Below, piece by piece: positions 8,027 through 53,839 of a stretch of 64,000 nucleotides of DNA. Each line of letters begins with the position of its first letter. Position 1 is the stretch's first letter. The position numbers were made by a program, and so were the translations under genes. The notes under the pieces are model-generated. The model ran no database searches, was not told the origin of the DNA, and was given only the letters and a program-made list of their open reading frames with translations. Source of the DNA: Alphaproteobacteria bacterium (GTDB lineage: Bacteria > Pseudomonadota > Alphaproteobacteria > UBA7887); NCBI GenBank assembly GCA_965216755.1, contig CBDCGL010000011.1, forward strand, positions 4,288,001 through 4,352,000. Direction: 5' to 3'.

Positions 8027-8085
8027 ACAGGACGCCAATCCCGACTCGAACGGGTGACGCATCGCGCGATGGGGATTGACTGGCA

Positions 8086-35805: not shown

Positions 35806-36924
35806 ATGGTCCAACTTAAGGAAGAGTCGCTGCCGAGAACGATGCACATGTCCCAAGATGACATCGGTCATAGAAAACGACTTCTGAGCTTGACCGGTGC
35901 GGACGAGGACATGATTGCGGCGTGTCAGCCATCAATTCTCAGCGCGATGGAAGCTATCGTAGATCAGTTCTACGTGAGTCAAATTAGTCACCCAGAGATC
36001 GCGCTACTATTTGGCGACGCGGACCATTCGGACGCCGCGTTGCAGGCTGTGCGCACGTATCTGCGTGATCTGTTTTCCGGCAGCTATGGGCCGGAATATG
36101 TCGAAAAGCGCTTATCTTTGGGCGCTGTTCAGAAGACATACAACATAACGCCCGCTATGTGTTTTGGTGCAATGCAGGCATTGCAATCATTGCTGCACGA
36201 TACTTTGCGCGGCGCGGCGGACCAAAACGCCAAGTCGACACAAGTCGACGATACAGCGCGTGCCGTGTCGCGCCTTATGATGTTCGATCTAAGCATCATC
36301 ACTGACGCGTATATCGTGAATGTCTTGTCTGACCTTGACAGAGAACGCCAAGACGTTGAGCACTACGCAGAGAGCCTGGAGGAAACAATCGCCGAACAAG
36401 CGCTGCAACTGGCGGAATTGGCGCGCAAGGACATTCTGACCAATCTCTACAATCAGCGCGCATTTTATGAGCACTTGCGCCGAGAGGCGAGCAATGCGGA
36501 GCGCCATGGGCAGCCGTTGTGTCTCCTTAACTTGGATGTGAATCGTTTTAAGGCCTTCAACGATCGTGAAGGGCATATCGCGGGCGACACGTTGCTTGCC
36601 TCAATTGGACGCGCGCTTCAGGACGGCGTGCGCGAGGGTGACATTGCCTGCCGCTATGGCGGCGACCAGTTCTGCATCATCTTGCCAAAGGCGGCAATCA
36701 GTGATGCCCAGGTGTTGTGTGATCGTTTGGTCCAGGCGCTTGAGCGCGGCGACACGCGCAACGTCGCATTCAGTATCGGAATCGCCCAAATGGGCCCCGA
36801 TCAGTTTTTCGACGTCGACCACTTTGTGAAGCAGGTCGATGGACTGGTTCACGCCGCCAAAATCGAATCGGGAAAGCGACCGGGCACCCACGTCAAGTCG
36901 CAGCGCGCGTTTGGCCCGCACTAG
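35806..36924 (+). CDS. globin-sensor + GGDEF-domain protein (degenerate GGDQF)
   Basis: protoglobin-like N-terminus (IVDQFY, SGSYGPEYVEKR), DILTNLYN, DVNRFKAFND, RxxD I-site REGD, GGDQF. Confidence 0.9.
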   Translation: MVQLKEESLPRTMHMSQDDIGHRKRLLSLTGADEDMIAACQPSILSAMEAIVDQFYVSQISHPEIALLFGDADHSDAALQAVRTYLRDLFSGSYGPEYVEKRLSLGAVQKTYNITPAMCFGAMQALQSLLHDTLRGAADQNAKSTQVDDTARAVSRLMMFDLSIITDAYIVNVLSDLDRERQDVEHYAESLEETIAEQALQLAELARKDILTNLYNQRAFYEHLRREASNAERHGQPLCLLNLDVNRFKAFNDREGHIAGDTLLASIGRALQDGVREGDIACRYGGDQFCIILPKAAISDAQVLCDRLVQALERGDTRNVAFSIGIAQMGPDQFFDVDHFVKQVDGLVHAAKIESGKRPGTHVKSQRAFGPH

Positions 36925-38462: not shown

Positions 38463-41400
38463 TTAGTAAGTGGGGAAATCGCGGCTCAGATCTTCTTCGA
38501 CGGCAATCAGAGCGTCGCCATTTTCATAAACCCGATACACCGAGCCTTCGCCAAACGGATTGCTCATCGTACCGACGTGGGACCACTCCCCAGGGTTGTC
38601 TTCCCACAAAGAGATCGAGTCATTCTCATTGCCGGCAACAAAGATATCGATATCCCGAAGCACGCCGTCGTCGTCTGCCATCGGTGCCAGATTGTTACTG
38701 GCACCCAGAGTGTTGACGGACGCAGCGTCGAAGGATACGCGATCATGGCTGTCGCCGTCGGTCATATCGATCAGTTCGATGCTGTGCAGCTTGGCGACTT
38801 GGTTGTCCTCAGCCTCGGGGCCCATATAGAGCTTACCGATACCATTGGCGCCAAAATCATTGCCGACATGCAACCGGTCAAAGCCGCTGCCACCGTCAGC
38901 CACCGCAAAGTCCCGAATTTCCTTGAAGTCGGCCGAAGGCGTCAAGTCTTGGAGGACCAGGATATCATCGCCTTGGCCGCCATAGAGCTTGTCGCCGGCG
39001 TCATTATCAAGGCCGCTGTAAAGGGTGTCGTTGCCCTTACCGCCATACAAAAGGTCGTTGCCCGCGCCACCATTAATGATGTCATCACCATCACCGCCAT
39101 GGGCCGTGTCGTCACCTTCGCCAGCTTGGATGTTGTCGTCATCGTCGCCGCCAAAGATGATGTCGCCTTGGTCACCGCCCAGCAATTCGTCAGCCAATGC
39201 ACTGCCCCAGATTGTATTGGGCGTGCCATTGTCGGCGGCAACCGAGATGCCGCTGCCAGCGTCCTCAATGACGCTCTTTATTTCGATGGATGCCGCGACC
39301 GGTCCGGCGACACCATCCGACACGGTATAGGAGAGGTTGCCGCTGTCGGCGACGCCATTGTTGTCTGGCAAATAGCGCAGTGAGGCGAACTCAGCGGCGT
39401 CCAGAGCCTCTCCACCGACCAAGGCCACAAAAACGCCATCCGATGCGCCGGTTGGATGGTAAAAGACATCGCCTGCACCCGGTACGTCGCCGATCGAGTA
39501 GGTCAAGGTGTCGCCTTCCAGGTCGGCGGCCGGATTGACCATGAGGGCGTAACCCGCGGCGGCGAGTACGCCAGGCAGCGCGGCCGGGTCGGCCGGATCG
39601 GTTGGGCGAATGGCCGTATTGTCTGGTACCCAAACCGTGCGTGATTCCGGCACCGGCGGCGTGTTCAAGCTGCTCGTGCCCAAGTCCGTGATGTTCAGTG
39701 TGAGCTCGGCGCTTGCCGTGCTGCCGTCGCCGTCGACGATTGTGTAGGCAAACGCTTCAGACTGGTTGCCATCGACCGGCGGCGCTGCGTAAGTGTAGCC
39801 GCCCGTTTCAAAGTTGAAACTCAAGACGCCGTCCAACGGAGTCACGATGGTGACTGTATCGCCGCTGGTCGTCGTTCCGTCCGGATTGGTAATCGTTCCG
39901 GTGACCGGATCGTATTGGAAAGTGAGCGTTTCACCGCTCGACGGGTCGGTGAAACTGAGCGAGGCCACATGGGCGTCGCCACCGGCGGGTCCATCGGCGC
40001 CAAATACGTCATTGGCGAGGACGTTGCCGTCAACCACCGAGCCTTCATTGGTCGGAATTGTTGCCAAAAGCCCTTCGGTGAGGGCGCCGTCTTCGACCAC
40101 GACGATGTCATCGGGATAGGCGACATCGTTGAGTGGCGAATCGCCAGGCACGACTTCCGGCCCGATCCGGACCGCAATTGAGCGTACGCCGTTGGTCACC
40201 ACGAAGGTCTTCCAATCCGCCGGCGTCGTGTTATTCGACGGAAACGGTTCGCCGTCAGAGACGAAATAGACAATGTTCGAAACTTCATCGCTTGACGGTG
40301 TTGCCGAAACGATGCCTTCGACAACGCCGCGGGTAACGACCAAGGCATCATCATATTCCGTGCTTAAGCCGAGGCCGTTCATACCCAGCGCCAGGCTGTC
40401 GATGAAATCGCCCGCGTCGGCGATGTTCATGGTGACGGTGTTGAAGGCGCCAGCCGTATCACCCATGAAATCAAGGTCACCACCAGATGCGAAGACCACG
40501 AACGTCACGGTCACTTCGGCCGTAATATCGCCATAACCGTCGATCAAATCGGCCAAGGCTTCCTTCATCGCCGACAGGCGGCTTTTGCCGGTGCCGGGAA
40601 TGATATCGCCCATGCTGCCGGACACATCGACAACCATGGTCAAGTTGACGAGTTTCGCGATGCCTTCATTGGCGGCATTGCTGTCGTCTTCCGCGATTGG
40701 CTGATCGTCGGTGATGTTGATCCGCAGCGTGCTGCTGGCCGTGCTGCCGTCGTCGTCGGTCACCACATAGGTGAACTGGTCTGCGACCGGACCGCCGCTG
40801 TGATCGCCATTGTCGGTCAGGTCATAGCGATATTGGCCGTCGCCGTTGATCGTCAGCGTGCCGTGCGTGCCAATGATGATGGTGTTACCGGTGTCGCTAA
40901 CAGGCACGCCGTTAACTTCGGTGACTTTGGCTGGATCGGTGCTGGTGAAATTTAGCGTGCCGCTGGTGCTTTCCGTGATCGCGGCCGGGTCGCTGCCGAT
41001 GTCGTCTCCGAGCACCACGTCATCGCTATCAAGCGCCGATTCCTCAACAATGCCGTGGGTGATTTCGGCGACCGGTTGATTGGTGTCGTGGAAATGAATC
41101 CAGATCACCGACTTGGCCGTATCACCGTCCGCGTCAACGATGTGGTAGAAAAAATCTTCCATCCCGTGCGGCGGAACCGATTCGACGGTCAGCGTGTAGG
41201 TATAGCTTCCATCGGGTTTGATGGTGACAAATCCGTACTTGCCGTCGACCCGAAGGCCGTCTTCGGGCACCGGCCGTCCAGACAACATCGTTACCACAAT
41301 GTGGTTGTCACCACCGGGATCGTCATTGTCAAAGACGTTGCCCGAGACGCTGTTGCCAAGACCTTCGTCCAGACCAATCACTTCCGCTTTGGCGCGCGGC

Positions 41401-43445
41401 GCATCGTCCTCAACAGCAACGGTGAACGTGCTGCTGTGGGAATCGCCGTCTGAATCCGTGATGGTGTAGGTGAAATTCAGGTCCAACACGTCATCATCGC
41501 CGGTGCGGACGACATCCGGGTGGTCCAGCGGTCCAAGCAGTTCAAATACATAGCTGGCGCCAGTGGGCGTCGGCGTAATTGTTATGACAAAGATTGTATT
41601 GCCACCGGCCGATCCGGTGATGATCGTGTTGCCGCTGCCGTCGGTGCCTTGGCTATAAGTGAGCGGAACGCCATTCGAGGTGAGCGTGGCGGGATCCGAC
41701 GGAATTGCTTGCACATTCGGATCGCCGTCGGTCACCGAGGTGAATTCGACAACGAGGGCGCCATCGGCGGCCGGGCCATCCATGCCGTAGGAGAAAAGCA
41801 ATGTGCCTGTCGCGCTATCCGGCACGAACTCTTGATCATTGCCCTTGCCGACAGAGTCCTCGGTTACGACCACCTTGCTGCCGTCGCCACCAGGCTGACC
41901 ACCTTCGTCGATCGTCGGCACACCATCGCGCACACAAACATGGAACGACGCCGAGGTCGAATCCATGTCGAAATCGGTGATCGTGACGCCGAACTCGAGA
42001 CCGACCACATCATCGTCGCCGCTTTCGCCGGCGCCCATGTGATCGATGCCGCGGATCAGATCGAAATCAAAATCGCCAGTCGTCGTGTCGATCTCCAAAC
42101 GCCAGACCGTGTTGCCGCTATCCGGGCCAAGGGACGGTTCAAAGCGTCCGGTGACGCCGACAACGATCAGCGTATCGCCGTCGAGAAAATAGTAATGGCT
42201 GATCGGTTCGCCATCGGATGTACCGGCAATCGTGCTGCCGTCGCCGCTGTCGTCGGTGTAGCGAATGCCGTCAATCGAGAACCAGTCGAGCTGGCCATCG
42301 GGCACGATGCGCATGCCGCCAGAACCCGGCACGATCGCCAAGTTATCGACAGACTCGGCGGTTCGATTCGGGCCATCGGAGCCGTGGTAGACGACGATGC
42401 GACCCGTGGCGCTGGCGCTATCGATCGTGCCACCGACATCGTCCGTGGCAATTGGCGGTGCCTCGTTCAGGCACACCATCGAGTTGTCGCCAACGAACAA
42501 GGCCGGGCCATCGTCGGAAACCGAAATGGTCACTGTGGCGGATCCGGTCGCGCCCGTCGAATCGGTGATATCCAAGACAAACACCAGATCTTGTAGATCG
42601 TCCGGATCGCTCGGGTCGCCGTGATCGAGGCCGTCGAGTAAATCAAACGTGACGTCGCCCGTCGGTGAAATCGACAATTCGAACACGGGCCGGCCACCGG
42701 CGCTGCCTTCGATCACCAACGTGCCGCTGTCGTCCCGTGTCGTGATGTCGATTGGATCGCCGCCCGAGGTGACGATGGTCGGGAATCCGGCAAAGCCGAT
42801 GCTGGTAATGGGGTTGCCTGTTGAGCTGATCAGCGCCCCCGACGTGCTCCCCAGCACGCTCGGTGTTGGGAAAGGATCGGTAAAGGGGTCGAAGCCGGCT
42901 CCAAGGTCGATCGATTCATCCGTGCCCAGGCCGAGCGTTGCGCGCGGGCCGTCCAGCGCCTCAACACCAATGCCGCCGTCCAGACCAAGATTTTCTTGGG
43001 CAACGCGGCCCTCGGGCTCCTGGAAGCCATCCTGGGGAATTTCACCGATGACACCGCGCGCGCGCAGATGGTCGGGGAACAGGTCGCCAATCGTCACTGT
43101 GCCGTCATTGCCGAGGCCGTCGTCTTCGTCGACATCGCCTGGCGGTTGTTCACCCGCCGCGGTCGCGATCAGATCGTCGAGCGTCGCAATTTGGGAATCC
43201 GCAAAGACCAGCCCGACATCGTCGGCATTTTCGAGCTGCGCATAGAAACCAGAGATCGTGACATCGAAATTGTCAACAGTGACGACGGTGTCGAAGTCGC
43301 CCTGATTCGTGATGGTGATACCGTCGGTGCCGATATCATCAAAGACTGCGCGTTCGCCCGGTCTTAACTGGATCCGGTCGACTGGTGGAACATCAAATGC
43401 CCGAACTTCGACGCCGGCAGCGTCAACGATACGAATCGTTGCCAT
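38463..43445 (-). CDS. large T1SS-secreted RTX adhesin (LapA-like): retention-type N-terminus, Ig-like/T1SS-143-type repeats, vWA domain, RTX repeats
   Basis: no Sec signal; TAAG at aa 95-98; repeats ending LDH...TITDxDGD...DDxP; MIDAS DVSGS and FVSDGEP; about 7 GGxGxDx(L/I) nonapeptides near C-terminus. Confidence 0.9.
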   Translation of the reverse strand: MATIRIVDAAGVEVRAFDVPPVDRIQLRPGERAVFDDIGTDGITITNQGDFDTVVTVDNFDVTISGFYAQLENADDVGLVFADSQIATLDDLIATAAGEQPPGDVDEDDGLGNDGTVTIGDLFPDHLRARGVIGEIPQDGFQEPEGRVAQENLGLDGGIGVEALDGPRATLGLGTDESIDLGAGFDPFTDPFPTPSVLGSTSGALISSTGNPITSIGFAGFPTIVTSGGDPIDITTRDDSGTLVIEGSAGGRPVFELSISPTGDVTFDLLDGLDHGDPSDPDDLQDLVFVLDITDSTGATGSATVTISVSDDGPALFVGDNSMVCLNEAPPIATDDVGGTIDSASATGRIVVYHGSDGPNRTAESVDNLAIVPGSGGMRIVPDGQLDWFSIDGIRYTDDSGDGSTIAGTSDGEPISHYYFLDGDTLIVVGVTGRFEPSLGPDSGNTVWRLEIDTTTGDFDFDLIRGIDHMGAGESGDDDVVGLEFGVTITDFDMDSTSASFHVCVRDGVPTIDEGGQPGGDGSKVVVTEDSVGKGNDQEFVPDSATGTLLFSYGMDGPAADGALVVEFTSVTDGDPNVQAIPSDPATLTSNGVPLTYSQGTDGSGNTIITGSAGGNTIFVITITPTPTGASYVFELLGPLDHPDVVRTGDDDVLDLNFTYTITDSDGDSHSSTFTVAVEDDAPRAKAEVIGLDEGLGNSVSGNVFDNDDPGGDNHIVVTMLSGRPVPEDGLRVDGKYGFVTIKPDGSYTYTLTVESVPPHGMEDFFYHIVDADGDTAKSVIWIHFHDTNQPVAEITHGIVEESALDSDDVVLGDDIGSDPAAITESTSGTLNFTSTDPAKVTEVNGVPVSDTGNTIIIGTHGTLTINGDGQYRYDLTDNGDHSGGPVADQFTYVVTDDDGSTASSTLRINITDDQPIAEDDSNAANEGIAKLVNLTMVVDVSGSMGDIIPGTGKSRLSAMKEALADLIDGYGDITAEVTVTFVVFASGGDLDFMGDTAGAFNTVTMNIADAGDFIDSLALGMNGLGLSTEYDDALVVTRGVVEGIVSATPSSDEVSNIVYFVSDGEPFPSNNTTPADWKTFVVTNGVRSIAVRIGPEVVPGDSPLNDVAYPDDIVVVEDGALTEGLLATIPTNEGSVVDGNVLANDVFGADGPAGGDAHVASLSFTDPSSGETLTFQYDPVTGTITNPDGTTTSGDTVTIVTPLDGVLSFNFETGGYTYAAPPVDGNQSEAFAYTIVDGDGSTASAELTLNITDLGTSSLNTPPVPESRTVWVPDNTAIRPTDPADPAALPGVLAAAGYALMVNPAADLEGDTLTYSIGDVPGAGDVFYHPTGASDGVFVALVGGEALDAAEFASLRYLPDNNGVADSGNLSYTVSDGVAGPVAASIEIKSVIEDAGSGISVAADNGTPNTIWGSALADELLGGDQGDIIFGGDDDDNIQAGEGDDTAHGGDGDDIINGGAGNDLLYGGKGNDTLYSGLDNDAGDKLYGGQGDDILVLQDLTPSADFKEIRDFAVADGGSGFDRLHVGNDFGANGIGKLYMGPEAEDNQVAKLHSIELIDMTDGDSHDRVSFDAASVNTLGASNNLAPMADDDGVLRDIDIFVAGNENDSISLWEDNPGEWSHVGTMSNPFGEGSVYRVYENGDALIAVEEDLSRDFPTY

Positions 43446-44333
43446 CTTGTTTCCCGTTTTCTTGCGGCTACGCGGATCATTGCCGTCTTAGCCTTATGGA
43501 TGCCGTCTTTTCGTTATTTGACCCGGTTATATCACTTTCGAATCCTCTGTCATGGTCTGTTCGAACCATATCGAATTTCAAGGCATTGACTGTGTGATTT
43601 TGCTCACCCTAAACGTTTCTACTGCATGACGTTTTTAGCGTTGCATCCGGATGCTTGACAGTTTTCGCAAACTAACCGTACACACGATTGCGAGACTTCA
43701 AGCAAACGCCGCCGCGAGAGCGGTGCGTGGTAGCCCTCAAAACACCACTCAAATATGAGGACAATTATGGCACATAGTTGTTGCTTGGTGGCACCAGAGT
43801 GTATGAGAATAAGCCGCATTTGCAATTCCCGGGGGCTTTTGTAGCCGCATTCTCGTGTCGGTGGAATTGTTTCAGCCGCGCCAGGACGCAAGAAGCTGAA
43901 TGGAACTTGGACTCAACCGACGACAAGGCTTTTCGCGCGCGCCGTGCCGGGCTTTTCGTTTCTGGATATCGTCAACAAAGTTTCGGTATTTGTCATTTAA
44001 TTTCAATAAATTAACGTCAAATCCGCAGAGGCCGAGCGGCACTTTCGTCGACGCTGTTGCTTCGTTTTTGTGGAATCCTAGTGCGTTTGAGCCATGACGT
44101 CTCGCAACCGGTTTGTGTATCTTCCGTGGCAAGAAAGTCACACGGTCGAAACACCGCGCGTGTATATTGCCAGCGCTTGCTGGATTTCAGCGTCCCAACG
44201 CGCGCACGACCGCGCTGTCAAAAAATTGCGCCGTGCGCATGTGGCCGGAGTTGGAAATGGTTGGGGATTTCTAGGGCGCGATTTTGATGGAACCACCGAG
44301 AATGTCGTTGCACAAGAGAGGATTTGAGCAAGC

Positions 44334-45791
44334 ATGACCCGCAAAGTTGAAGCCTGGGCTGACATATTGTTGTACAAGCCCGGCTTGGCCGACAAACGGG
44401 CCGTTGCCGAAATTGAAAAATCGCGTGACGTGCAATGGCTCAAAGAGCGCGGCGCGTCGGTGACGGTGTGCACAAATGCGGCTGCTATGCGTCAGCGACT
44501 GTCCACCCACGCGCCGACCTTGGTGCTGTTGGATTTCGCGGCCGGCGAAGAGTCCATCGATTCAGTTGAAATCGAGAGTCTGCACCACATTCGTCCGAGC
44601 TTGCGCTTTGTTGCGCTCGTCAACGGGGATCTCGTTGGGTCGCCAATATTTGCCGACTTGGTGCGCAAGCGCCTTCTCTACGACTATCAAACATTGCCCT
44701 TAGATCGCGACCGCCTGCTGTTCGTCGTCGGTCACGTGCGCGGTTTGGTGGAAGTTGAGCGCCAGCATCGAGCGGCGCGGCCAATTGGCACCGAGAACGC
44801 GGAATCCGAGCCCTTCATGGTCGGATCGCATCCGGCAATGTTGCGTGTCTTCTCAACGATTCGGAAAGTGGCGCGAACCGACACGCCTGTTTTGGTCACT
44901 GGTGAGAGTGGCACCGGCAAAGAACTGGTTGCCAACGCAGTGCATGAACGTTCGCCGTTTCGCGAGGGCCCATTTGTTGCCATCAATTGCGCGGCCATCC
45001 CGTCGACGCTGATTGCGTCGGAGCTGTTTGGTCACGAAAAGGGTGCCTTCACAGACGCGCGCGAGCGCAAGTTGGGCAAGATTGAATCGGCTTCGAACGG
45101 CACTTTGTTCCTGGACGAAATCGGCGATTTGCCGCTTGAGCTTCAAGGGCATCTGCTTCGTTTCTTGCAAGAGAAAACCATCGAACGGGTTGGTGGCACG
45201 CGCACGATTCAAGTGACGACTCGGGTCATCGCGGCGACCAACGTAGACTTGTGGGAAGCGGTCGAAGCCGGAAAATTCCGTAAGGATTTGTTTTATAGGC
45301 TGAATGTCTTGCCGATTCACTTGCCGCCGTTGCGAGAGCGCGGCAATGATATCGAGCTTGTCGCGCGTTATTTTCTACAGCGGTTTAGTTCCGAGCTTGA
45401 GCGGCCCGACCTGGAGTTTAAGTCGAGCGCGATCGCGGCAATCCGAAATTATGGCTGGCCGGGCAATGTGCGTGAGCTGATCAGCGTCATCCGCCGGGCG
45501 GTGGTCATGGCGGAATCACGTTGCATCGACGCATCGGATCTGGATCTTCCCGTTTCGGTCGATGACGGTGGTCGGTTGCCGACCATCGAAGAGGCACGGT
45601 ATCAGGCGGAACAAGAGGCGATCCAAAGGGCGCTGCACAAACATAACGACAATATCAATCGTGCAGCAAAGGAGCTTTGTGTCTCGCGCGTGACGCTGTA
45701 TCGACTGATCGAGAAACATGCCATCGTCTACACGCCGCGCGGTCGCAAGCGCGTCGCGGATTGGACGCCGGACATTGAATATATTAACTAA
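44334..45791 (+). CDS. sigma54-dependent Fis-family activator with atypical receiver domain (VpsR-like)
   Basis: GESGTGKE, ELFGHEKGAFTDA, FLDEIGD, WPGNVREL, C-terminal HTH; N-terminal YDYQTLP as in VpsR-type proteins. Confidence 0.92.
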   Translation: MTRKVEAWADILLYKPGLADKRAVAEIEKSRDVQWLKERGASVTVCTNAAAMRQRLSTHAPTLVLLDFAAGEESIDSVEIESLHHIRPSLRFVALVNGDLVGSPIFADLVRKRLLYDYQTLPLDRDRLLFVVGHVRGLVEVERQHRAARPIGTENAESEPFMVGSHPAMLRVFSTIRKVARTDTPVLVTGESGTGKELVANAVHERSPFREGPFVAINCAAIPSTLIASELFGHEKGAFTDARERKLGKIESASNGTLFLDEIGDLPLELQGHLLRFLQEKTIERVGGTRTIQVTTRVIAATNVDLWEAVEAGKFRKDLFYRLNVLPIHLPPLRERGNDIELVARYFLQRFSSELERPDLEFKSSAIAAIRNYGWPGNVRELISVIRRAVVMAESRCIDASDLDLPVSVDDGGRLPTIEEARYQAEQEAIQRALHKHNDNINRAAKELCVSRVTLYRLIEKHAIVYTPRGRKRVADWTPDIEYIN

Positions 45792-45873
45792 ATTTGCAGA
45801 CAGGGCGGGGTATAACACATAAACTGCGGCACATCGCGGCGTAAGGGACGCGCCGCCAAAAATAGGTGGGAAG

Positions 45874-47142
45874 ATGGGACGAAGGACTGCGGGAACGGTA
45901 GCCGTCTTTGCGGGTATCGTTGGGGTGACGTTACCACTGGGTGCTTTTGAATCCGCCTGGGGGGCAGAGGCGCCGGATACCGCGCTCCAAGCCGAGATTG
46001 AGATTCTTCGGGGCGAGATTCAGCGCCAGCAGAATTCCTTGGATGCCCAACAAGAACAACTTCGGCGTCTCGAGCAGCGTTTGTTTGAGCGGATCGGGGG
46101 TGCCGGCGGTCAGATCGTCGACCCTGGCTTGTTGGAAGATGTTCGTGGTGCCGGCACTGGCGCCGGAGGTGGGCAAGCCAATGGCGGCGTGTCGGATCCG
46201 GTCGGTGAGGCGGCACCCGAGACACGGCCTGAAGTGAGCGTATTGTCCGATGTCGGCGGTGTTTTGACCCCGCGCGGTCGGTTGGTGGTCGATCCTTCTT
46301 TTGAGTTCAGTCACACGGCGGTCAACAAGTTCTTCTTCAGCGGTGTCCAGATCGTCGATGCGGTGTTGATTGGCGCGATTGAGGCGACCGATGCCCGTCG
46401 CGATAGTTTCACGCCGTCGATCGGAGCACGCTACGGCGTCACCAATCGTATTGAGGTGGATGCGCGCGTTCCTTATTCGATTCGCGATGACGTGGAGAGT
46501 GATCCGTTGGATGCGTCATCGCCGCTGTCGCGCGAGCTAAGTGCGAACGATCTGGGCGATGTCGAATTCGGCGCGCACTATCAGATCAATGACGGAACCG
46601 CCGGGTGGCCCTATTTCATCGGCAATTTGCGTTTCAAGACAACAACGGGAACCGGACCGTTCGACGTCGCGTTCGACTCTCAAGGTCGTCAGCGGGAACT
46701 TCCGACTGGATCTGGCTTTTACACGCTCGAACCCAGTGTCACGGTGCTCTATCCGACCGATCCGGTGGTCCTGTTCGGGAATATCGGTTATGCAGTCAAC
46801 TTGCCGGACGACGTCGACAAGACAATTGGGTCACAGTTTTTCGGCAAGGTCGACCCGGGCGACAATTTGCGCACCAGCTTTGGCATCGGTTTCGGCATCA
46901 ACCAACAGGTATCGATGAGTCTGGGGTATGAACACAGTTATGTGTTCGAGACCGACTCGGAGATTGATGGCGTTACGGTGAAGTCTGATCCAGCGCAAGT
47001 GGGATCTTTCCTGTTTGGTTTGTCGTTGGCGGTGACCGACAGGATCTCGACCAACTTGAACGTGGCTGTTGGGGCGACGGAAGACGCACCAGATGTCCGC
47101 ATTGGTATCAGTACGCCGATATCGATCGATCTTTTCAACTAA
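45874..47142 (+). CDS. fapF: FapF-like outer-membrane beta-barrel transporter with N-terminal coiled coil
   Basis: signal peptide, coiled coil (EIQRQQNSLDAQQEQLRRLEQ), GGVLTPRG, RYGVTNR, LGDVE, LPTGSGF, TDPVVLFG, GATEDAPD; near C39 peptidase. Confidence 0.82.
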   Translation: MGRRTAGTVAVFAGIVGVTLPLGAFESAWGAEAPDTALQAEIEILRGEIQRQQNSLDAQQEQLRRLEQRLFERIGGAGGQIVDPGLLEDVRGAGTGAGGGQANGGVSDPVGEAAPETRPEVSVLSDVGGVLTPRGRLVVDPSFEFSHTAVNKFFFSGVQIVDAVLIGAIEATDARRDSFTPSIGARYGVTNRIEVDARVPYSIRDDVESDPLDASSPLSRELSANDLGDVEFGAHYQINDGTAGWPYFIGNLRFKTTTGTGPFDVAFDSQGRQRELPTGSGFYTLEPSVTVLYPTDPVVLFGNIGYAVNLPDDVDKTIGSQFFGKVDPGDNLRTSFGIGFGINQQVSMSLGYEHSYVFETDSEIDGVTVKSDPAQVGSFLFGLSLAVTDRISTNLNVAVGATEDAPDVRIGISTPISIDLFN

Positions 47143-47348
47143 ACACCAGGGTCGATGGTAGGCCGCTTTTGGCCGGCGTGAAAAGCTGAGTAGTTTCAGG
47201 TAATCGGGTAGAACGAGCACTTGTCCGGGACAGCGGTCAGGTGCTCGGTCTTTTCAGCCTCAGTAAGAACGCCCGCGGACGGATGGCGGTGGTCTGTTCG
47301 ACAGGTAGAGAAATTCCGCACGGTTCCGTGACACGACGCCAGATGACT

Positions 47349-47704
47349 TAGAGCACTTTCCGACCATATTGAGTCAATTCTGTTTCCGGTCCGGCGCGGC
47401 GGTCCACGCGAAGGGCGGCGCAGCGCGATGCTCGTGTCCCGAAACCGAAGTTCGTCACGTCTGACCCCAGGCACCTTACGAACTGCGGTTTCGTCAGGAC
47501 ACGAGTCGAATATTTGGATCTCGCGCGGTTCACGGATCGGACGTTCGCTCTGGGGCTCGATGCGAGATCAAGCGAACGTCCGATCCACCGCACGAGCGCA
47601 TCGGGCAAGTCCGCCGACCAATGTGGTCGTCCACATGGATTCCCATCGGGGGACGCCCGCCGGTCGGAAACAGAATTGATTCGATATGGTCGGAAAGTGA
47701 TCTA
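47349..47704. mobile_element. ~356-bp MITE-like non-autonomous element
   Basis: ~47-bp imperfect terminal inverted repeats TAGA(G/T)CACTTTCCGACCATAT..GA.TCAATTCTGTTTCCG; TA at both ends; no transposase ORF. Confidence 0.72.
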
Positions 47705-47812
47705 GCGGCCGCGTTTGCAACGTGCACGAACCGATCTTTTGAAAGTACGTTGGATCGAATCCAACCGCGCCGGTTGGCCCTTTGACTTCGGGACAGTTGT
47801 GCGTGGGGGCGC

Positions 47813-47848
47813 AAAAAAAGGGCCGGTGGATCCAGGGTACCACCGGCC
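47813..47848 (-). terminator. intrinsic terminator of fap-like operon
   Basis: GGCCGGTGG...CCACCGGCC stem followed by T7 on minus strand. Confidence 0.75.
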
Positions 47849-47989
47849 AAAAACTTGGTTCTTAAGACATCGACGCCGTATGGCTCCACCAAATGGGCGG
47901 CCGATGTTGAGGTCGACGGCTACGTTAGGTCCCCCCGGTCCTAGGCGTTAACGAACGCGTGATCCGCCGACCACTCTCGTGTCGCGGCC

Positions 47990-48628
47990 TTAGAATTGCC
48001 CGACATTGATTTGATTTGTGATCTTCCGGGCCTTGATGGCCGGCAAAGCGTTCATGATGTAGCTGGTTAGGCTACGAACATGAATATTCACTTCGGTTGA
48101 AGATTCAAAAATCTGCCGATCGGCCGTGTTGTTGATCATGGCCAATACTTGGCCATTATTGTTCACCTGATGAACAATCTGTGTTGAAGACGGATCGCCG
48201 AGTGCCACACTGTAGCCACCGCCGTTCGACTGCTGTACAGCCGCCGCAGCGGTTGTTGCCGTTTGCTCGCCGCCGGTATCCACGTCGGCCAATCCGGCAT
48301 TCGACGGATTGACTTGCGTGGTCGCCGGCAGCCATTGCCCGGCGTCATTCATCGTCAGTTGGGTCACCAGTTCCATGGCGCCGTTAACCGTCGATCGAAC
48401 CGTCAACCCGAAGTCGAACACGACGCCACCGATCACCATGCCGCCACGCATTTGGTCAAGGTCATCGTTGTCGACCGGTGCAAACGCCGAGAAGACATCG
48501 GCAGAATGCGCGCGCGCATCCACCTTGTCGCTGCCCAAGGACACGATTGCCCCAAACGCCGCTGCCCCGATAATCAAGCCACCCAGCGCCAATGTCGTTT
48601 TGTTGTTGTTCTTTAGTATCGACTGCAT
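47990..48628 (-). CDS. FapE-like secreted protein
   Basis: signal peptide; APVDNDDLDQMRGG...FDFG...VNG; C-terminal INNTADRQIFESSTEVNI; directly after C39 peptidase. Confidence 0.72.
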   Translation of the reverse strand: MQSILKNNNKTTLALGGLIIGAAAFGAIVSLGSDKVDARAHSADVFSAFAPVDNDDLDQMRGGMVIGGVVFDFGLTVRSTVNGAMELVTQLTMNDAGQWLPATTQVNPSNAGLADVDTGGEQTATTAAAAVQQSNGGGYSVALGDPSSTQIVHQVNNNGQVLAMINNTADRQIFESSTEVNIHVRSLTSYIMNALPAIKARKITNQINVGQF

Positions 48629-48643
48629 TACGTCCCAATCCCT

Positions 48644-49345
48644 CTAGAATTCAGCAAGACCCGGCAAGTTCATCGTGAACGATGCCAAGCCTTGTCGAAC
48701 CATCGCCGTCTGCACAGGGGCTCGCACCCTGACATTCCAATCGTCATCCTGGTTGAATGTCGCGTTCGCGACTTCGACATTGTCCCGGATCACGAAAACG
48801 ATCCCATTCCAGATCTGTTCAAATTCATCCCGCCGTACGACCATGACGCCACGGGCCGGATCCCCAAGTACGACCTCATCGCCGCGAATACCTTTGACGA
48901 CGACAAAATGCTTGTAGCCGTTGGTATCGATCAATGTGATCGCCGGCACCCCCACTTCCGCGAGTTGGTCTAGCGAAATCTTGAAACCGTCGCCGGTCCA
49001 GCCAACCGATTCCAAGAACCGCTTCATATCCAGCAACGAAAACCCGTAGCGGTGAATGGATTCCTTGTCGCCGACTATGTACATGGCCTCGAAAAGTTCG
49101 GCTTCGGTGATCTCTTGTTTGTAGTGATACGTCAGCAAACTCGCCAATGCGGCCGAGCCACACGAGAAGTCATACTGCTGCGCAAGGATGGTCTTAAAAC
49201 GCCCTTCTTTAAGACTGATAATGGGGACGCTGTAGCGCATGCCATGAAACCCTGGCGTCGAAATAAAAACTTCGCCCGCCATGGTCGGGGTGAACGCCGC
49301 AACGCTGGTCAAAATAACACTGACCAAAAAAGAACGTATGCGCAT
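48644..49345 (-). CDS. fapD: secreted stand-alone C39 cysteine peptidase (FapD-like)
   Basis: QQYDFSCGSAALASLL (catalytic Cys), GFSLLDMK, YKHFVVVKG (His), GDPARG (Asp); signal peptide, no ABC domain. Confidence 0.9.
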   Translation of the reverse strand: MRIRSFLVSVILTSVAAFTPTMAGEVFISTPGFHGMRYSVPIISLKEGRFKTILAQQYDFSCGSAALASLLTYHYKQEITEAELFEAMYIVGDKESIHRYGFSLLDMKRFLESVGWTGDGFKISLDQLAEVGVPAITLIDTNGYKHFVVVKGIRGDEVVLGDPARGVMVVRRDEFEQIWNGIVFVIRDNVEVANATFNQDDDWNVRVRAPVQTAMVRQGLASFTMNLPGLAEF

Positions 49346-49406
49346 TTGCTCTCCCTTTGATTCCCGTGAAGCCGCTTTGGTTTGAACAGGTCTGAACTTG
49401 CCTGCG

Positions 49407-49805
49407 TTACTTCACGTCCAATCCATCGAGATAAACGTTCACGATGGTCGAATAGTTGAAGTTGTTCATATCGCCCGTGTTGTTGACGACCGTCGTGATG
49501 CCGTGGGTATCAGTGACCACGTTGTTACGGATTTGCCCGGAGGTCTTCGTGGAGCCGTTATCCAGGCTAATTGTGTTGTCTTTGATCGTCGCGTCCGAAT
49601 CCACCTGCGACGTTGTGAGGACGCTGTTAGCCACGCCGATAGCGACACTGCTGAGGGCAGCGCTATCCACGGGCTGCAAACTATTCAGTCCTTCCGATTG
49701 GGCGGTCGCCGTTGTGCTCATCGCTGCGACGACACCAACGGCGATCACGCCTGCCAAAACTCGGCTCTTGCCGGCCGCCTTACGTTTCTTATGGAGCATT
49801 TTCAT
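49407..49805 (-). CDS. small secreted Fap-repeat protein (FapB-like minor subunit/nucleator candidate)
   Basis: signal peptide; C-terminal GITTVVNNTGDMNNFNYSTIVNV resembling the Fap repeat G-x-x-x-x-x-(Q/N)N(S/T)G-x-N. Confidence 0.7.
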   Translation of the reverse strand: MKMLHKKRKAAGKSRVLAGVIAVGVVAAMSTTATAQSEGLNSLQPVDSAALSSVAIGVANSVLTTSQVDSDATIKDNTISLDNGSTKTSGQIRNNVVTDTHGITTVVNNTGDMNNFNYSTIVNVYLDGLDVK

Positions 49806-49840
49806 TTTTTGCGTTCCCTGGGATGTTTTCTGCTCAGATC

Positions 49841-49875
49841 GTTCCGGCGGCAGGGAGAATTTCCTGCCCCGGAAC
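49841..49875 (-). terminator. intercistronic hairpin after the major-subunit gene
   Basis: GTTCCGG.GGCAGG...CCTGCC.CCGGAAC stem 11 nt after stop, no U-tract. Confidence 0.55.
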
Positions 49876-49886
49876 AGTGATGCCTC

Positions 49887-51080
49887 TTAGTTCCTGATCG
49901 ATCCGCCACCATTGACGCTGCCAACAATGGCGTTGACGCTCATCGCGACGTTTTGGTTTTGGGCGAAACCGGTGTTTTGCATAATCGGATTTACGCCGGA
50001 CAGTCCGGTGATCCCCTCCAACAGACTTCCTGTCTTGAACTTGAATGCCAGGCTGGTTGTTTGACGGCCACCGCCAATAGCTGCCGCGGTCGTGTTCTCG
50101 GCATCCGCCGCGATTCCATTTGCAGCGGTCGCGGCATTCGACACTGGTCCGGATTCGGCCTTGGCTGTGGCGTCTCCAGACTTTGCGTTGCTACCGGCGC
50201 CGGCCGTTGCGGACGTTTCGCCGACCGCGCCGCCGCCGCCTGTGGCGCCGCCGCCTTCGCCGGATGTCCCGGCCGCGTCGCCATCCTTGTCGCCCAAGCT
50301 GGTCGCGTTTGTTGCCTTGCCGCCGCCGATGGCGATGCCATCCGCGAAGTTTGCGGCGCGTCCGCCAGCGGCCCGGCTGTTGCCGCCTTGATTGCGCGCA
50401 TCGCCGCCCTCATTGCCGCCAGCCAATGCGGCTGCCCTCGCTGCCGAATCCGAGCCCGAGAAATTCGCATTTCCGCTGGTTGAATCACCGTCCGCGCTGG
50501 CCGCAGCGACGCCGATTCCGATCGCTGCCACTTCGCCCGCCGCAATCGCGGCGCCCGCTCCACCAGTGGCGGCACCATTGGCTTCAAGATTGAACATCTG
50601 AACTTTCGCGATCGCCGAACGGAGCTGCGAATGGCTCAACTGGGCCACATTGTTGTAGATGCTGCGGTCGTAGGCGACGGCGTTGCCCGAATTCCACATT
50701 ACGTGCCACAGTGCGCTGTTGTTGCTGTCGACGGTGGTCGTGTTGCTATAGGTCAGCTTCTCGGCATCGACATCCAAAGCGTCGATGTCCACTTTGCCGT
50801 TTTTGTTGTCGATGACGTCGTTGTCAGCTGTCGCGCCACCGCTGGCGTTGCCCGCGCCCAAATTGTTGTCAGCGGCCGCCAGATCGACATCCAACACGTC
50901 ATTGTCTGCAATACTGCTGTTGTTCGCGTTCCCCGCTGCCACGCCCGCGATGCCCACATTCGCTTGGCTTTCTGCCACACCAAGGCCGCCACCTGCGCCA
51001 CCCCCGGCGTACGCCGTGCCGGCCAAGGCCATGCCAACGGCGACTACCGATGCTGTAGCCAAATGGGAGTTCATCTTCAT
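49887..51080 (-). CDS. secreted Gly/Ala/Asn-rich protein with C-terminal Fap-like repeat (FapC-like major amyloid subunit candidate)
   Basis: GGAGGAG RBS, signal peptide ending AYA, ADNDV(L/I)D repeats, C-terminal SGVNPIMQNTGFAQNQNVAMSVNA; first gene of operon. Confidence 0.72.
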   Translation of the reverse strand: MKMNSHLATASVVAVGMALAGTAYAGGGAGGGLGVAESQANVGIAGVAAGNANNSSIADNDVLDVDLAAADNNLGAGNASGGATADNDVIDNKNGKVDIDALDVDAEKLTYSNTTTVDSNNSALWHVMWNSGNAVAYDRSIYNNVAQLSHSQLRSAIAKVQMFNLEANGAATGGAGAAIAAGEVAAIGIGVAAASADGDSTSGNANFSGSDSAARAAALAGGNEGGDARNQGGNSRAAGGRAANFADGIAIGGGKATNATSLGDKDGDAAGTSGEGGGATGGGGAVGETSATAGAGSNAKSGDATAKAESGPVSNAATAANGIAADAENTTAAAIGGGRQTTSLAFKFKTGSLLEGITGLSGVNPIMQNTGFAQNQNVAMSVNAIVGSVNGGGSIRN

Positions 51081-51249
51081 CGACATCTCCTCCAGCGTCC
51101 CCTTAACGATCCATTCCCGACAATCCGGCGTGCGACGCAATGTCCAACCCGCGGTTGAATTGCCGTCGCATCCCTTCGTTGGCCCACGTCGCAATTCACG
51201 TCGTGTGGCTCACCGGGTTGCCGGCGAGCCGCCGTCCGAGGGCTATATA

Positions 51250-51265
51250 AGCAACTCTCATGCCA
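51250..51265 (-). promoter_or_regulatory. sigma54 (-24/-12) promoter of fap-like operon
   Basis: minus strand TGGCATGAGAGTTGCT, exact GG-N10-GC; AT-rich tract 51288-51307 upstream (possible IHF site). Confidence 0.82.
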
Positions 51266-52023
51266 TCGCCTTGTTTGTCATAAGCAATTGAAAAATAATA
51301 TGAAAATGTCGTGGTTGGGGGGTGCGCAGCGCGGGGGCTTATCAGGTGTCCCAATCTTGTTACAGTCGATCGGGGGCCATTTTCGATGGCTGCTATTGGT
51401 GGCTTAAGCAGGTGTGACGCCGCGGACCGAAATGGTCTGTCAAATATTTGAAATTGTTCGTAAAATTGATGTCGATTTGTGCGAAGTTGCGCGCACCTTG
51501 GCGTGGGTGCAGTTCCGCCGTGACGTGTCAAATGTTTCGTTTCTGAAACATAGGCCGGACTGCAAGGCGCCCGAACGGGTAGGCTTTGCCCGATCCGGCG
51601 CATGTGCGGCGACCGTAAAGCGGTGCCGGTATGGTCCAATTGGGTGGTTGGAGATGAGGATGTATCAGGCACGAAACCCTTGGCCCATATGCACCACTTG
51701 GGTCACAAATGACGCGCGCGCATCCTCAGCCGGCGGGCGATCTCATTGCCGCCGCCCGTGACATGGCCTCATGGACGGGCGCCCCACGGCCGATTCCGGC
51801 GTGGCTGTCCTTGGCCGTGTTGACGAAGGCGCGCCGAACGTCACCAGGTCGTGGTGAAAATACACACCCAGAATGTTTCAACATGGCCCCAGATTGGCCG
51901 AAAGGTGCGCACCACCGCTGTTCGTTCAAACGGGGTCGTTTGAACGACGTTGAATCGATCGATGTCAGTTAGATAGAGCGTATCATGCGAACGTATGTCA
52001 ACCTGATCGGCTCCAGATCCGCA

Positions 52024-52359
52024 CTACATGTTAAATACGATCTTGACGCCGTGTTCGGTGTGGCTGATCGACGGCGGCTGTCGTCCATTCGGCGTTCGCG
52101 GATGGCGAAACTCATCCCACAAAATTACCGCTGTGTCGGTCTCCATCCGACCGCTGTCCGCGGGCCCAGAGGCGTGACCGGTCCCGACCGTGGCGCGCAG
52201 CCGAGCTTCGTCGAGAGGCATTTGGCAGCCATCGCCAAATAGGTTTGGCCTGGACACGCAGCCATCGATTGCGCGCGCCGGGGCAACGACAAGTAGCGTC
52301 GCGGCACAGCCTATGACCAGTGTGCCGACGCAGCATCTGAATTGTGAATGAACTTTCAA
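52024..52359 (-). CDS. small secreted protein, probably fap-locus associated
   Basis: signal peptide ending ARA; PLDEARLRATVGTG motif like the leaders of the FapB/FapE-like proteins; VILWDE motif. Confidence 0.55.
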   Translation of the reverse strand: MKVHSQFRCCVGTLVIGCAATLLVVAPARAIDGCVSRPNLFGDGCQMPLDEARLRATVGTGHASGPADSGRMETDTAVILWDEFRHPRTPNGRQPPSISHTEHGVKIVFNM

Positions 52360-53188
52360 ACTTCCTGCCTCAACATTGAGCAGGCCCCGCCCAGGGCAGC
52401 ACTTAAAATTCCACGCTAATTACGCCTACTCAATTCATGGGCTTGCCGCAAGTGAAAAATTTCAGATCGACTGTGATGAGTCATGGAAAGGTACAAAGAA
52501 ACGTCCCAAATCTATTTGCAAAGGACCTTTTGACAGCTGTTTCAATTATGAAACTCTAGCGCCCGTCATTAATGCAGGTCTTGGGCAGCCAAAATGATCG
52601 ATCCGCCCGAATAAGTGCCGGCCGACGCAGACCTTTAAATCCAATAGGTAGATAATAATAAGTATATAAATTACACGTAAGGCTTCTAAATTCAACGAAT
52701 CGCGTGCATCAACTTTTTACCGCGCAGCTTTGGATGTAACGGTCCTAACTGTGAGAGGCGAAGGTAGCTTCATATTTGACGTATTATTTAGATGTATCAC
52801 GAAAAAATATGGAGACACAGAAAAACCGAGGCCCCGGTTTGCAATGCGGCGCATGGGGTGCGGGGTTGGCGTCATAGCCGCCGAACCGGTTTCTATCGGT
52901 GACTTGATGGTCGCGCCATGATCTGCCAACTTCGGGCGCGGCAAACGACCCGTAACGCATTGAATTTGTGAAGCATCTGAGATAGGATAATGTTCCGGAT
53001 GCGGATCAAAAAGGGCGCTGACACGCCATGCGGGTGTGCCCGCGCGTCGCGACAGTGGCCAAAAAAATGTACCCTGGGCGGATGCCACCACGGTTGCCGC
53101 AGATATTCGTCGGTTGCGGCGTTGATGTCGTTTCGGCCAGAGGCATAGTCACAAGGTCCGAATGCCATTCGGTCGGAGGATTGGTTTG

Positions 53189-53839
53189 ATGTGTCAAGTG
53201 AGATTTCATCAAGCGATCGCGATGATTGCAGCCGTAATTGCGCTGTCGTCGCCATTGCTGGCGCCGCCCGCGCATGGCGCCTGGTATCAAGAGACTTTCG
53301 ACGGCGCGCCGAACGATGTCATGATGGGCATTCTGCATTTCGGCGCAGGTGAAGTTTGGCAGGGTGATTTGCGTGGTGGCACCTACTATCTCGGGAATCA
53401 ATCCGATGAACAGGCCGTCAACCTGTATTTCATCGGTGCGCTGCCAAATGAACCGGCCGGTTTATTGGGCGAGGCTGTGGTTTCCGTCGACGTCGGGGGT
53501 ACGTATCAAGGGCAGCGGGCCGGGTCGGGGCTGATTTATCGCTTCAGCGACGATCCGCTCAACTACTACGCGTTTTTGCTCATGCAAGGCAACAGTTACG
53601 GCCTTTTCCAAAGGGACGCGAGCGGCTTTACTTTGATAGCCAGCGCGCAAGATTCCGCAATCGCTGTTGACCGGATGAATCGCCTGACGGCGGCGACATA
53701 TTCAGATGGGATTTGGTTTTATATCAACGGCAAACATGTGCAGACGGTTCCGGCGCCCGGATTTGGCGGCAGTTCGGTCGGCATCATCGCCAAGGGCCTT
53801 GGCGAGCATTTCTTCGATAATTTTACGGTCGAACGTTAG
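53189..53839 (+). CDS. secreted beta-sandwich (DUF1080/concanavalin-like) hypothetical protein
   Basis: signal peptide; YQETFD, GLIYR..D..NYYAF, FYINGK, HFFDNF. Confidence 0.7.
   Translation: MCQVRFHQAIAMIAAVIALSSPLLAPPAHGAWYQETFDGAPNDVMMGILHFGAGEVWQGDLRGGTYYLGNQSDEQAVNLYFIGALPNEPAGLLGEAVVSVDVGGTYQGQRAGSGLIYRFSDDPLNYYAFLLMQGNSYGLFQRDASGFTLIASAQDSAIAVDRMNRLTAATYSDGIWFYINGKHVQTVPAPGFGGSSVGIIAKGLGEHFFDNFTVER

Follow-up and report, generated by a model that had tools for sequence, protein, structure and literature searches.

To our knowledge, Fap of Pseudomonas is one of only two well studied routes by which Gram-negative bacteria export amyloid. Fap (5O65, 5O67) comprises a stand-alone C39 cysteine peptidase in the periplasm (FapD), a channel in which an N-terminal coiled coil and a linker precede the barrel (FapF), an accessory protein (FapE) that is encoded right after the peptidase and carries a leader-like segment, and Sec-exported cargo rich in Asn, Gln and Gly, as the accounts in PMC5557850 and PMC3792158 have it. 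These traits recur in the locus described here, which lies in a 64 kb window, the whole stretch of alphaproteobacterial DNA that was analysed, and in which a minus-strand group of four genes converges on a plus-strand pair encoding a sigma-54-dependent activator and a FapF-like channel (Table 1). Coordinates are positions in this window, and the labels p397, p132, p212 and p111 give protein lengths in amino acids. Sequence comparison makes it highly probable that the locus encodes a secretion system of the FapD/FapF type from a clade sister to that of Pseudomonas Fap, and probable that it represents one member of a clade that is widespread and uncharacterized.

The survey of Dueholm (2013) describes Fap from Beta-, Gamma- and Deltaproteobacteria only, records that fapA is often deleted from real Fap operons and reports that the FapD and FapF hidden Markov models (HMMs) match ‘two larger protein families’, with ‘false positive’ matches (PMC3792158). 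Outside Fap proper, Acinetobacter has a related pair formed by a FapD-like peptidase and a FapF-like channel, which NCBI names Fil (‘putative pilus system’) and which is compared here by model name only.

Peptidase and channel in a clade sister to Fap

Judged by their profile matches, the channel and the C39 peptidase are clear homologues of FapF and FapD, respectively. The channel, which is single-copy in the genome, matched the NCBIfam FapF model (NF058560) with an E of 1.4e-46 and 159 bits (158.7) over profile positions 14-417 of 420, and the FapF structure in the PDB (5o67) with an E of 1.8e-31 in an alignment that spans residues 131-415 and takes in the ‘LPTG’ motif; coiled-coil families in Pfam matched at residues 36-73. 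The peptidase matched Pfam Peptidase_C39 (E 1.3e-22) and the NCBIfam FapD model (NF058616; E 1.3e-43, 149 bits). Among solved structures it comes closest to double-glycine-motif protease domains (6mpz, E 4.7e-10). Three segments align with their counterparts in that protease, namely ‘FSCGSAA’ with its Cys, ‘YKHFVV’ with its His, and ‘DPARG’; the residues concerned we take to be catalytic, and the enzyme is presumably periplasmic. Both scores lie far under the equivalog cut-offs (700 bits for FapF and 330 bits for FapD), and on this measure equivalog-level membership in the two families is denied. The Fil models also match the two proteins (FilB, E 8.2e-35 and 120.5 bits; FilC, E 3.1e-22 and 79.4 bits), with scores that are lower than those of the Fap models (120 versus 149 and 79 versus 159 bits) and far under the NCBIfam cut-offs of 475 and 630 bits.

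The activator, encoded 82 nt ahead of the channel gene on the same strand, matched Pfam Sigma54_activat (2.2e-70), AAA_lid_14 and HTH_8; its VpsR domain scored 22.5 bits, just below the Pfam cut-off of 23.7, and its top NCBIfam match, the PEP-CTERM-box response regulator, reached 398.6 bits under a cut-off of 502.6. A stand-alone C39 peptidase, and a sigma-54 activator followed by a coiled-coil/beta-barrel transporter, had been claimed in the original prediction for this DNA, and both assignments are borne out.

In a phylum-wide sample of 401 genomes, 31 carried a FapF-like match at E<=1e-10 (the unpublished G423 is counted here and otherwise left out). FapF scores fell into tiers of about 765, 355-392 and 100-180 bits, with the window in the lowest. 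Twenty FapF-like neighbourhoods, stretches of about 18 kb, were collected from this sample. One locus (L039) holds a genuine fapABCDEF operon whose six proteins all score above the NCBI cut-offs, and seven loci from the top two tiers are collinear in the order B-C-D-E-F. A maximum-likelihood tree of 27 channels separated 7 Fap rows from 20 sister rows with a support of 100/100, and placed the window in a six-row subclade (100/99) together with three genomes from the same class or family and with metagenome-assembled genomes (MAGs) whose titles read Rhodospirillaceae and Bdellovibrionales. For the MAG contigs of G692 (L004=L093) and G707 (L007=L092), the submitter title ‘Bdellovibrionales’ conflicts with the GTDB placement in the class of the window and of a ‘Rickettsiales’ MAG.

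BLAST clustering of the 20 sister loci recovered the channel in all 20, the C39 peptidase in 16, a small protein in 11, an E-like protein in 10, the activator in six and a large protein in five, with p212 falling in a separate three-locus cluster beside the ten-locus E-like cluster; no further recurrent family was found among these loci, and hence no analogue of FapA. By profile, the sister layout consists of a small protein of about 115-145 amino acids, the C39 peptidase and then a protein of 140-260 amino acids, which are adjacent in 15 other sister loci and in 13 of 14 further loci from a class-level sample, and the order in the window matches. Profile matches occurred only beside peptidase or channel genes and nowhere else in the 18 kb stretches or the 64 kb window. 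In eight of the 16 loci holding both genes (window counted) and in all seven non-duplicate channel-bearing loci of the class-level set, the channel gene and the operon converge, so that a split-off fapF is the norm of the clade. A homologue of the sigma-54 activator accompanies the channel gene in ten other loci, five of them Fap-clade (five of the seven Fap-clade loci examined). On these comparisons, the order large, small, C39 and E-like with a convergent channel is the commonest layout of the sister clade across many Pseudomonadota. The original prediction had taken the separation of fapF and its pairing with the regulator as a local rearrangement; the channel is indeed encoded apart and beside the activator, but this arrangement belongs to the clade as a whole, and the synteny survey shows the locus not to be a one-off.

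The small-subunit profile matched 16 of 401 genomes of the class-level sample (G000 and the unpublished G642, which is otherwise left out, are both counted here), and among the 40 nearest relatives a FapF-like gene was found in one genome only. In one locus (L051) the small/C39/E-like module occurs twice in tandem (3924-5506 and 6788-8370) with a single convergent channel gene, and the two copies scored identically in every search. A Fap-clade operon (L045) and a sister system (L046) lie about 90 kb apart on contig C11 of G083, so that they are not alternative forms of a single system. No description of the sister clade was found in the literature on Fil, on Fap and FapF-like homologues, on Alphaproteobacteria or on FapD and double-glycine motifs, subscription journals and bioRxiv supplements being outside the scope of that search.

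Genuine Fap does occur in the class to which the window belongs, since Fap-clade operons are present in two of its genomes, G180 (L041) and G228 (L042), where B, C, D, E and F are accompanied by a weak FapA match (2.2e-4). The statement in the original prediction that Fap is known mainly from the beta, gamma and delta classes therefore needs to be widened by these two operons.

The cargo families and their leader

A profile of 16 small subunits (alignment A1), run against 1.84 billion cluster representatives, outlined a family that numbers 2067 representative clusters (50% identity) with a threshold of E<=1e-3; with E<=1e-10 the number is 1393. None of the small and E-like proteins tested had a Pfam or NCBIfam model, and in ten small-family clusters that were looked up the source-named members were ‘hypothetical protein’ in 10 of 11 cases and ‘carbon storage regulator’ in one. 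Two members, P0057 (439 amino acids) and P0137 (1500 amino acids), contain six and 15 tandem copies, respectively, of the small-family domain of about 65 residues, and P0057 weakly matched the curated FapB model (E 0.0015). The large proteins encoded upstream of the small gene in sister loci are rich in Ala, Gly, Asn, Ser and Thr and have a C-terminal domain in common with the small subunits: an HMM built from 14 large-protein C-termini, with no window sequences included, recovers the small subunits at 7e-8 to 1e-2.

Behind the Sec-like signal the small subunits display a nearly invariant leader: of 128 aligned sequences, 127 have Leu at -7, 119 have Arg at -3, 125 have Gly at -2 and 110 have Gly at -1, with mostly Val, Leu or Ile at -12, and all 16 of 16 E-like proteins carry a leader of the form [LY]-x3-[RY]-[GA]-G. 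The published spacing for C39 substrates, as given in PMC6363468, is Leu-12, Glu-8, Leu-7 and Val-4 before Gly-Gly, and the sister leaders agree with this double-glycine rule. The L-x3-R-G-G leader that follows the Sec signal is thus likely to be a C39 cleavage site. By alignment, the true FapE of L039 (9613-10467, minus strand) has L-12, E-8, L-7, L-4, G-2 and K-1. In L039 and in L040-L045, the C39-like spacing of FapE comes right after the signal peptide and is followed by R-G-K or R-G-R. The account of Rouse (2017) has FapE without its mature N-terminal peptides and gives the FapD target as unknown (PMC5557850). The leader segment of FapE could be the FapD cleavage site in Pseudomonas. A double-glycine leader placed behind a Sec signal offers a testable cleavage site in the sister systems and, by alignment, in FapE; if it is real, the same leader logic would name the long-sought substrate site of FapD.

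Profile-profile comparison with hhalign related the E-like family (16 sequences) to seven true FapE sequences with a probability of 96.3% (E 1.7e-9) and the small family to the E-like family with 98.0% (E 1.9e-13); the small family reached 93.3% with FapE and 74.1% with FapB, whereas neither the small nor the E-like family was significantly similar to FapC. As controls, ten reversed profiles all gave E>=0.08. With the signal peptides cut, the E-like and FapE profiles still aligned (90.3%, E 1.4e-6) over 30 columns that correspond to the leader, and the mature parts of the small and E-like families aligned with 89.8%. Both the E-like family and FapE are therefore closer to the small family than FapB is, and any kinship between the repeat domain and the Fap repeat is very remote. 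The E-like protein, as far as alignment tells, shares leader and position with FapE.

The three putative cargo proteins of the window sit unevenly within these families. The smallest, p132, matched the small-subunit family profile with 97.8 bits, and its tie to Fap proteins runs solely via family profiles; against custom HMMs it gave an E of 0.038 for FapB and 0.011 for FapC, and p397 gave none. Its leader reads V-12, L-7, V-4, I-2 and G-1, and, in the absence of the near-invariant Arg-Gly, p132 may not be a C39 substrate. A word-based search of 5.8 billion proteins returned p132 alone. The AlphaFold2 (AF2) model of p132 has four strands and a helix at residues 48-55, a block with a predicted local distance difference test score (pLDDT) of 84, and a four-copy complex prediction of its mature part gave 0.24, 0.44 and 0.09 in three runs, which speaks neither for nor against assembly.

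The leader of p212, with V-12, D-8, L-7, M-4, G-2 and G-1 (‘DDLDQMRGG’), is of the regular type, and its gene directly follows that of the C39 peptidase, as fapE follows fapD. Against an HMM of the seven FapE sequences it gave an E of 8.9e-6 in two collinear stretches; no Pfam or NCBIfam match was found, the NCBIfam FapE model remaining silent at E<=10. Its AF2 model has a helix at residues 54-60, so that a helix covers the leader segment in both p132 and p212. A Foldseek search of the p212 model against the PDB returned nothing at E<=1e-3, the best hits being LolA/MucB-like chains (E 0.03, template-modelling score TM<=0.2), and the E-like profile in the word-based search of 5.8 billion proteins recovered seven proteins, the named ones of which are all ‘hypothetical’. 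The earlier description of p212 as FapE-like is borne mainly by its leader segment and gene position, the mature parts of the two families showing no significant similarity.

The large protein, p397, contains 21% Ala, 17% Gly, 10% Asn and no Cys, and resembles in position and composition the large proteins that other sister loci encode ahead of their small gene. The C-terminal match of p397 to the clade C-terminal-domain HMM is aligned at the expected place, and in a database-scale search with that profile p397 stayed below detection at E<1. No Fap HMM match and no internal repeats were found in p397, and phmmer with composition correction gave no match; uncorrected phmmer matches to the large proteins of other loci were rejected as due to composition, because opposite-strand open reading frames (ORFs) matched too. 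In a protein language-model look-up, the nearest clusters were unnamed ones from Pseudomonadota (0.92), with the FapB/C cluster at 0.76, a proximity that is a lead and no more. Taken by sequence, the window's cargo consists of divergent members, an orphan p397 and a leader-broken p132, and the copy in the window is an outlier that would make a poor model organism for the family.

What the system may export

The three proteins p397, p132 and p212 are likely to be the cargo of the system. In the mechanism envisaged, the activator encoded nearby would drive a sigma-54 promoter upstream of p397, from which p397, p132, the C39 gene and p212 would be transcribed, and all four products would cross the inner membrane by Sec. 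The periplasmic peptidase would then recognize a helical leader through its hydrophobic residues at -12, -7 and -4 and cut after Gly-Gly; p212 would be cleaved by design, while cleavage of p132 would be doubtful without Arg-Gly. The unfolded, Asn/Gly/Ala-rich proteins would leave through the coiled-coil-gated FapF-like barrel and form a fibre or matrix outside, in which p397 would supply the bulk, and p132 and p212 the nucleating, capping or anchoring parts. That the product is an amyloid-like cross-beta fibre is put forward tentatively, at a little short of an even chance. With somewhat greater reserve, the locus may be seen as a divergent member of a large and hitherto undescribed family of systems that build fibres outside the cell, sister to Fap, with about 2000 subunit clusters at 50% identity among Pseudomonadota, one stackable, Asn/Gln-rich unit of about 70 residues per subunit (six or 15 in some members) and a second propeptide, of double-glycine type, cut by a free C39 peptidase in the periplasm ahead of export through a FapF-type channel.

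Several results count against the overall reading of the locus given here. In the window's genome, which is 99.8% complete, the curated FapA (NF058617), FapB, FapC (NF058557 and NF058558) and FapE models gave no match at E<=0.01; in a positive control, with the FapB and FapE models outside it, the FapA and FapC (NF058558) models each recovered five of five Fap-clade genomes, two of which, G180 and G228, come from the window's own class. The mature parts of the E-like and FapE profiles, taken alone, are not significantly similar (E 0.18), and removal of the leader lowers the probability of the match between the small family and FapB to 36%. Under iterated HMMs, FapB, FapC and FapE ended up in one group with the window families, and leader and composition may be what draws them together. 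The 80 C-terminal residues of p397 scored 13.8 bits against the clade C-terminal-domain HMM, a value equalled or bettered by 17 of 1000 composition-matched shuffles, and the word-based search of 5.8 billion proteins returned p397 alone. Among the 128 aligned small subunits, p132 is the sole member with Ile at -2 and the sole one with Ala at -3. The AF2 models of p132 and p212 are beta-rich and of low confidence (pLDDT 60.7 and 64.7). Finally, one-mismatch sigma-54 sites number two in 64 kb versus 2.5 expected by chance, so that only the position of the candidate promoter is suggestive.

The locus could in principle be a true, rearranged fapABCDEF orthologue, with p397 as FapC and p132 as FapB. 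FapF and FapD are the best NCBIfam matches of the channel and the peptidase, the order large, small, D and E loosely recalls C/B-D-E, and the iterated HMMs placed FapB, FapC and FapE with the window families. Yet both machinery proteins fall far short of the equivalog cut-offs (159 versus 700 and 149 versus 330 bits), the channel's clade is split from Fap with a support of 100/100, no FapA, FapB, FapC or FapE model finds anything in the window's genome, while those for FapA and FapC succeed in five of five Fap-clade genomes, G083 carries both systems, and the triple repeats and the CxxC are missing; orthology of this kind is largely refuted and has become hardly credible. The sister channels, that of the window included, form a separate clade; the window lacks FapA, a weak feature alone given the frequent deletion of fapA from real Fap operons; the cargo belongs to a different family, with a single C-terminal domain instead of three repeats; the order of the cargo genes runs from large to small; the channel gene usually faces the operon instead of standing last in a collinear one; and the leader ends in Gly-Gly instead of Gly-Lys or Gly-Arg. 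Neither CxxC nor internal repeats were found in the window subunits, whereas the true FapC of L039 ends in C-x-x-C-L. The original prediction was thus right in calling the system homologous to Fap but distinct from it (no FapA, FapB or FapC in the genome, and a fully supported split), in finding no recognizable fapA (no match to NF058617) and in describing subunits devoid of a triple repeat and of CxxC (no Cys in p397, no internal repeats). Its gene order C-B-D-E has to be given up, since the labels C and B lack a basis in homology, the small family standing nearer to E-like proteins and FapE than to FapB and p397 being unlike FapC; one clear Fap-type repeat per subunit was overstated, p132 being linked through profiles only and p397 at the margin of the shuffles.

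A pair of FapD- and FapF-like proteins might, on the other hand, export something that is not amyloid, such as a thin pilus or adhesin, as the Fil name suggests for Acinetobacter, a surface-layer or matrix protein, or small secreted peptides that mature by cleavage at a double glycine; the low-complexity proteins would then be disordered or enter assemblies other than cross-beta. The FilB (8.2e-35) and FilC (3.1e-22) models match as well, the mature cargo shows no robust similarity to Fap repeats and AF2 offers no confident solenoid, the nearest solved relatives of the peptidase process the leaders of bacteriocins or of peptides that are made on ribosomes and modified afterwards (RiPPs), and the nearby RTX/cadherin adhesin and GGDEF genes speak in a general way for functions at surfaces and in biofilms. 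The channel, however, is closer to FapF than to FilC (159 versus 79 bits), the cargo is rich in Asn, Gln and Gly with predicted strands, the family includes members with six and 15 copies, as amyloid repeat proteins do, P0057 weakly matches FapB, and a Sec signal ahead of the leader is unlike cytoplasmic bacteriocin precursors, all of which makes a non-amyloid product unlikely. Less probable still is a decaying or silent remnant with intact machinery and nonfunctional cargo genes. Such a state would accord with the lack of close relatives of p397 and p132 among 5.8 billion proteins, with the two outlying leader positions of p132 and with the presence of the system in one of 40 related genomes; the frames, however, are open and of normal codon usage, the presumed catalytic residues are intact, and a ribosome-binding site and a promoter-like site are present.

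If the locus is read as a member of a sister clade with its own exported cargo, parts of it resemble other systems. The C39 domains of PCAT1, LahT and ComA have the same fold by sequence (4.7e-10 to 6mpz) and their substrate leaders the same spacing, with hydrophobic residues at -12, -7 and -4, an acidic one at -8 and Gly-Gly at the end; in contrast to these, the window peptidase is free and Sec-exported instead of a domain of an ATP-binding cassette (ABC) exporter, its substrates would carry a Sec signal before the leader, and export across the outer membrane is proposed to use the FapF-type barrel. Curli (CsgA, CsgB, CsgG) and Caulobacter HfaA/HfaB likewise export small Asn/Gln-rich subunits unfolded through a dedicated outer-membrane channel, but with a CsgG-type channel and no C39 peptidase; a C39 context was found in 13 of 14 alphaproteobacterial small-subunit loci, in which a CsgG-like gene was not directly searched for. 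Caulobacter HfaA is an anchor protein of amyloid-like character. A canonical small subunit, that of L049 (11193-11624, minus strand), came out in the language-model look-up close to a cluster automatically named ‘Holdfast attachment protein HfaA family’ (0.94), and a link between the small subunit and HfaA may be regarded as a lead.

Of more interest than the aberrant copy in the window is what holds for the family as a whole: its size, a cargo family peculiar to it and its double-glycine leader. FapD/FapF machinery would serve a much larger set of systems, so far without a name, that have cargo proteins of a separate family, and this would explain the many ‘false positive’ FapD and FapF matches of Dueholm (2013). 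The single-domain subunits and their multi-repeat relatives form a natural series in which repeat number can be related to fibre assembly and, should the product be amyloid, the clade would represent a third major functional-amyloid pathway of Gram-negative bacteria beside curli and Fap.

Layout of the locus and neighbouring genes

Table 1. Features of the locus, with positions in the 64 kb window
Feature	Position	Strand	Traits or basis
Sigma-54-dependent activator (enhancer-binding protein, EBP)	44334..45791	+	Receiver/VpsR-like N-domain, AAA+ sigma-54 interaction domain, Fis-type helix-turn-helix (HTH)
FapF-like outer-membrane channel	45874..47142	+	Signal peptide, Gln-rich coiled coil, Gly-rich linker, beta-barrel
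p212, FapE-like accessory or secreted protein	47990..48628	-	Sec-type signal, double-glycine-type leader, beta-rich body, C-terminal helix
Stand-alone C39 cysteine peptidase, FapD-like, with signal peptide	48644..49345	-	Pfam and NCBIfam matches
p132, small secreted subunit	49407..49805	-	Sec signal, degenerate leader, Asn/Thr-rich C-terminal domain of about 70 residues
p397, large Ala/Gly/Asn/Ser-rich secreted protein, presumed major cargo	49887..51080	-	Composition, position
Candidate sigma-54 -24/-12 promoter, TGGCAT-N5-TTGCT	51250..51265	-	Precedes the p397 start codon by about 170 nt
p111, doubtful ORF	52024..52359	-	TTG start, weak coding signal

A check of the window ORFs found the six main ones at the positions assigned to them previously, and they are real coding genes: for p397, p132, the C39 peptidase, p212 and the channel, the margin of the in-frame codon likelihood over either off-frame is 0.42 log units or more. 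The gaps between p397, p132, the C39 gene and p212 are 81, 61 and 15 nt, a spacing compatible with an operon, and 847 nt separate this group from the convergent plus-strand genes. The minus-strand operon of four signal-peptide proteins claimed earlier is thus confirmed for its ORFs and spacing, while the Sec-like character of the N-termini was judged by eye. A ribosome-binding site, GGAGGAG, lies 6 nt ahead of the p397 ATG at 51080, and the candidate sigma-54 site, read from 51265 to 51250, has one mismatch to TGGCAC-N5-TTGCW; scans of sigma-70 promoters and terminators gave nothing above shuffles. In a search for sequencing runs, no RNA run was listed for this organism, and the four DNA entries came from one study. 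A fifth small secreted gene, which the original prediction added upstream, did not hold up: p111, about 940 nt upstream of p397, has an in-frame codon advantage of just 0.17 (real genes, at least 0.42), no Pfam or NCBIfam family match and no counterpart in 19 other sister loci, and probably lies outside the system. No convincing gene was seen in the convergent gap (47143-47989) or in about 760 nt at 51266-52023, and an Rfam scan of 43400-53200 returned nothing at E<=0.1.

Upstream of the activator lie the genes of a protoglobin-GGDEF diguanylate cyclase (35806-36924, plus strand) and of a 1660-residue RTX/cadherin/Big_9 surface protein (38463-43445, minus strand), and the window also encodes a TPR-SPOR protein and two T2SSE-type ATPases. 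The RTX/cadherin and GGDEF neighbours may belong to the same biofilm programme; the neighbouring genes fit surface and biofilm biology and prove nothing. The GC content drops to 0.541 in 48001-50000, which covers the C39, p132 and p212 genes, compared with about 0.58-0.60 on either side, a dip that could stem from Asn/Thr-rich coding sequence or from foreign origin.

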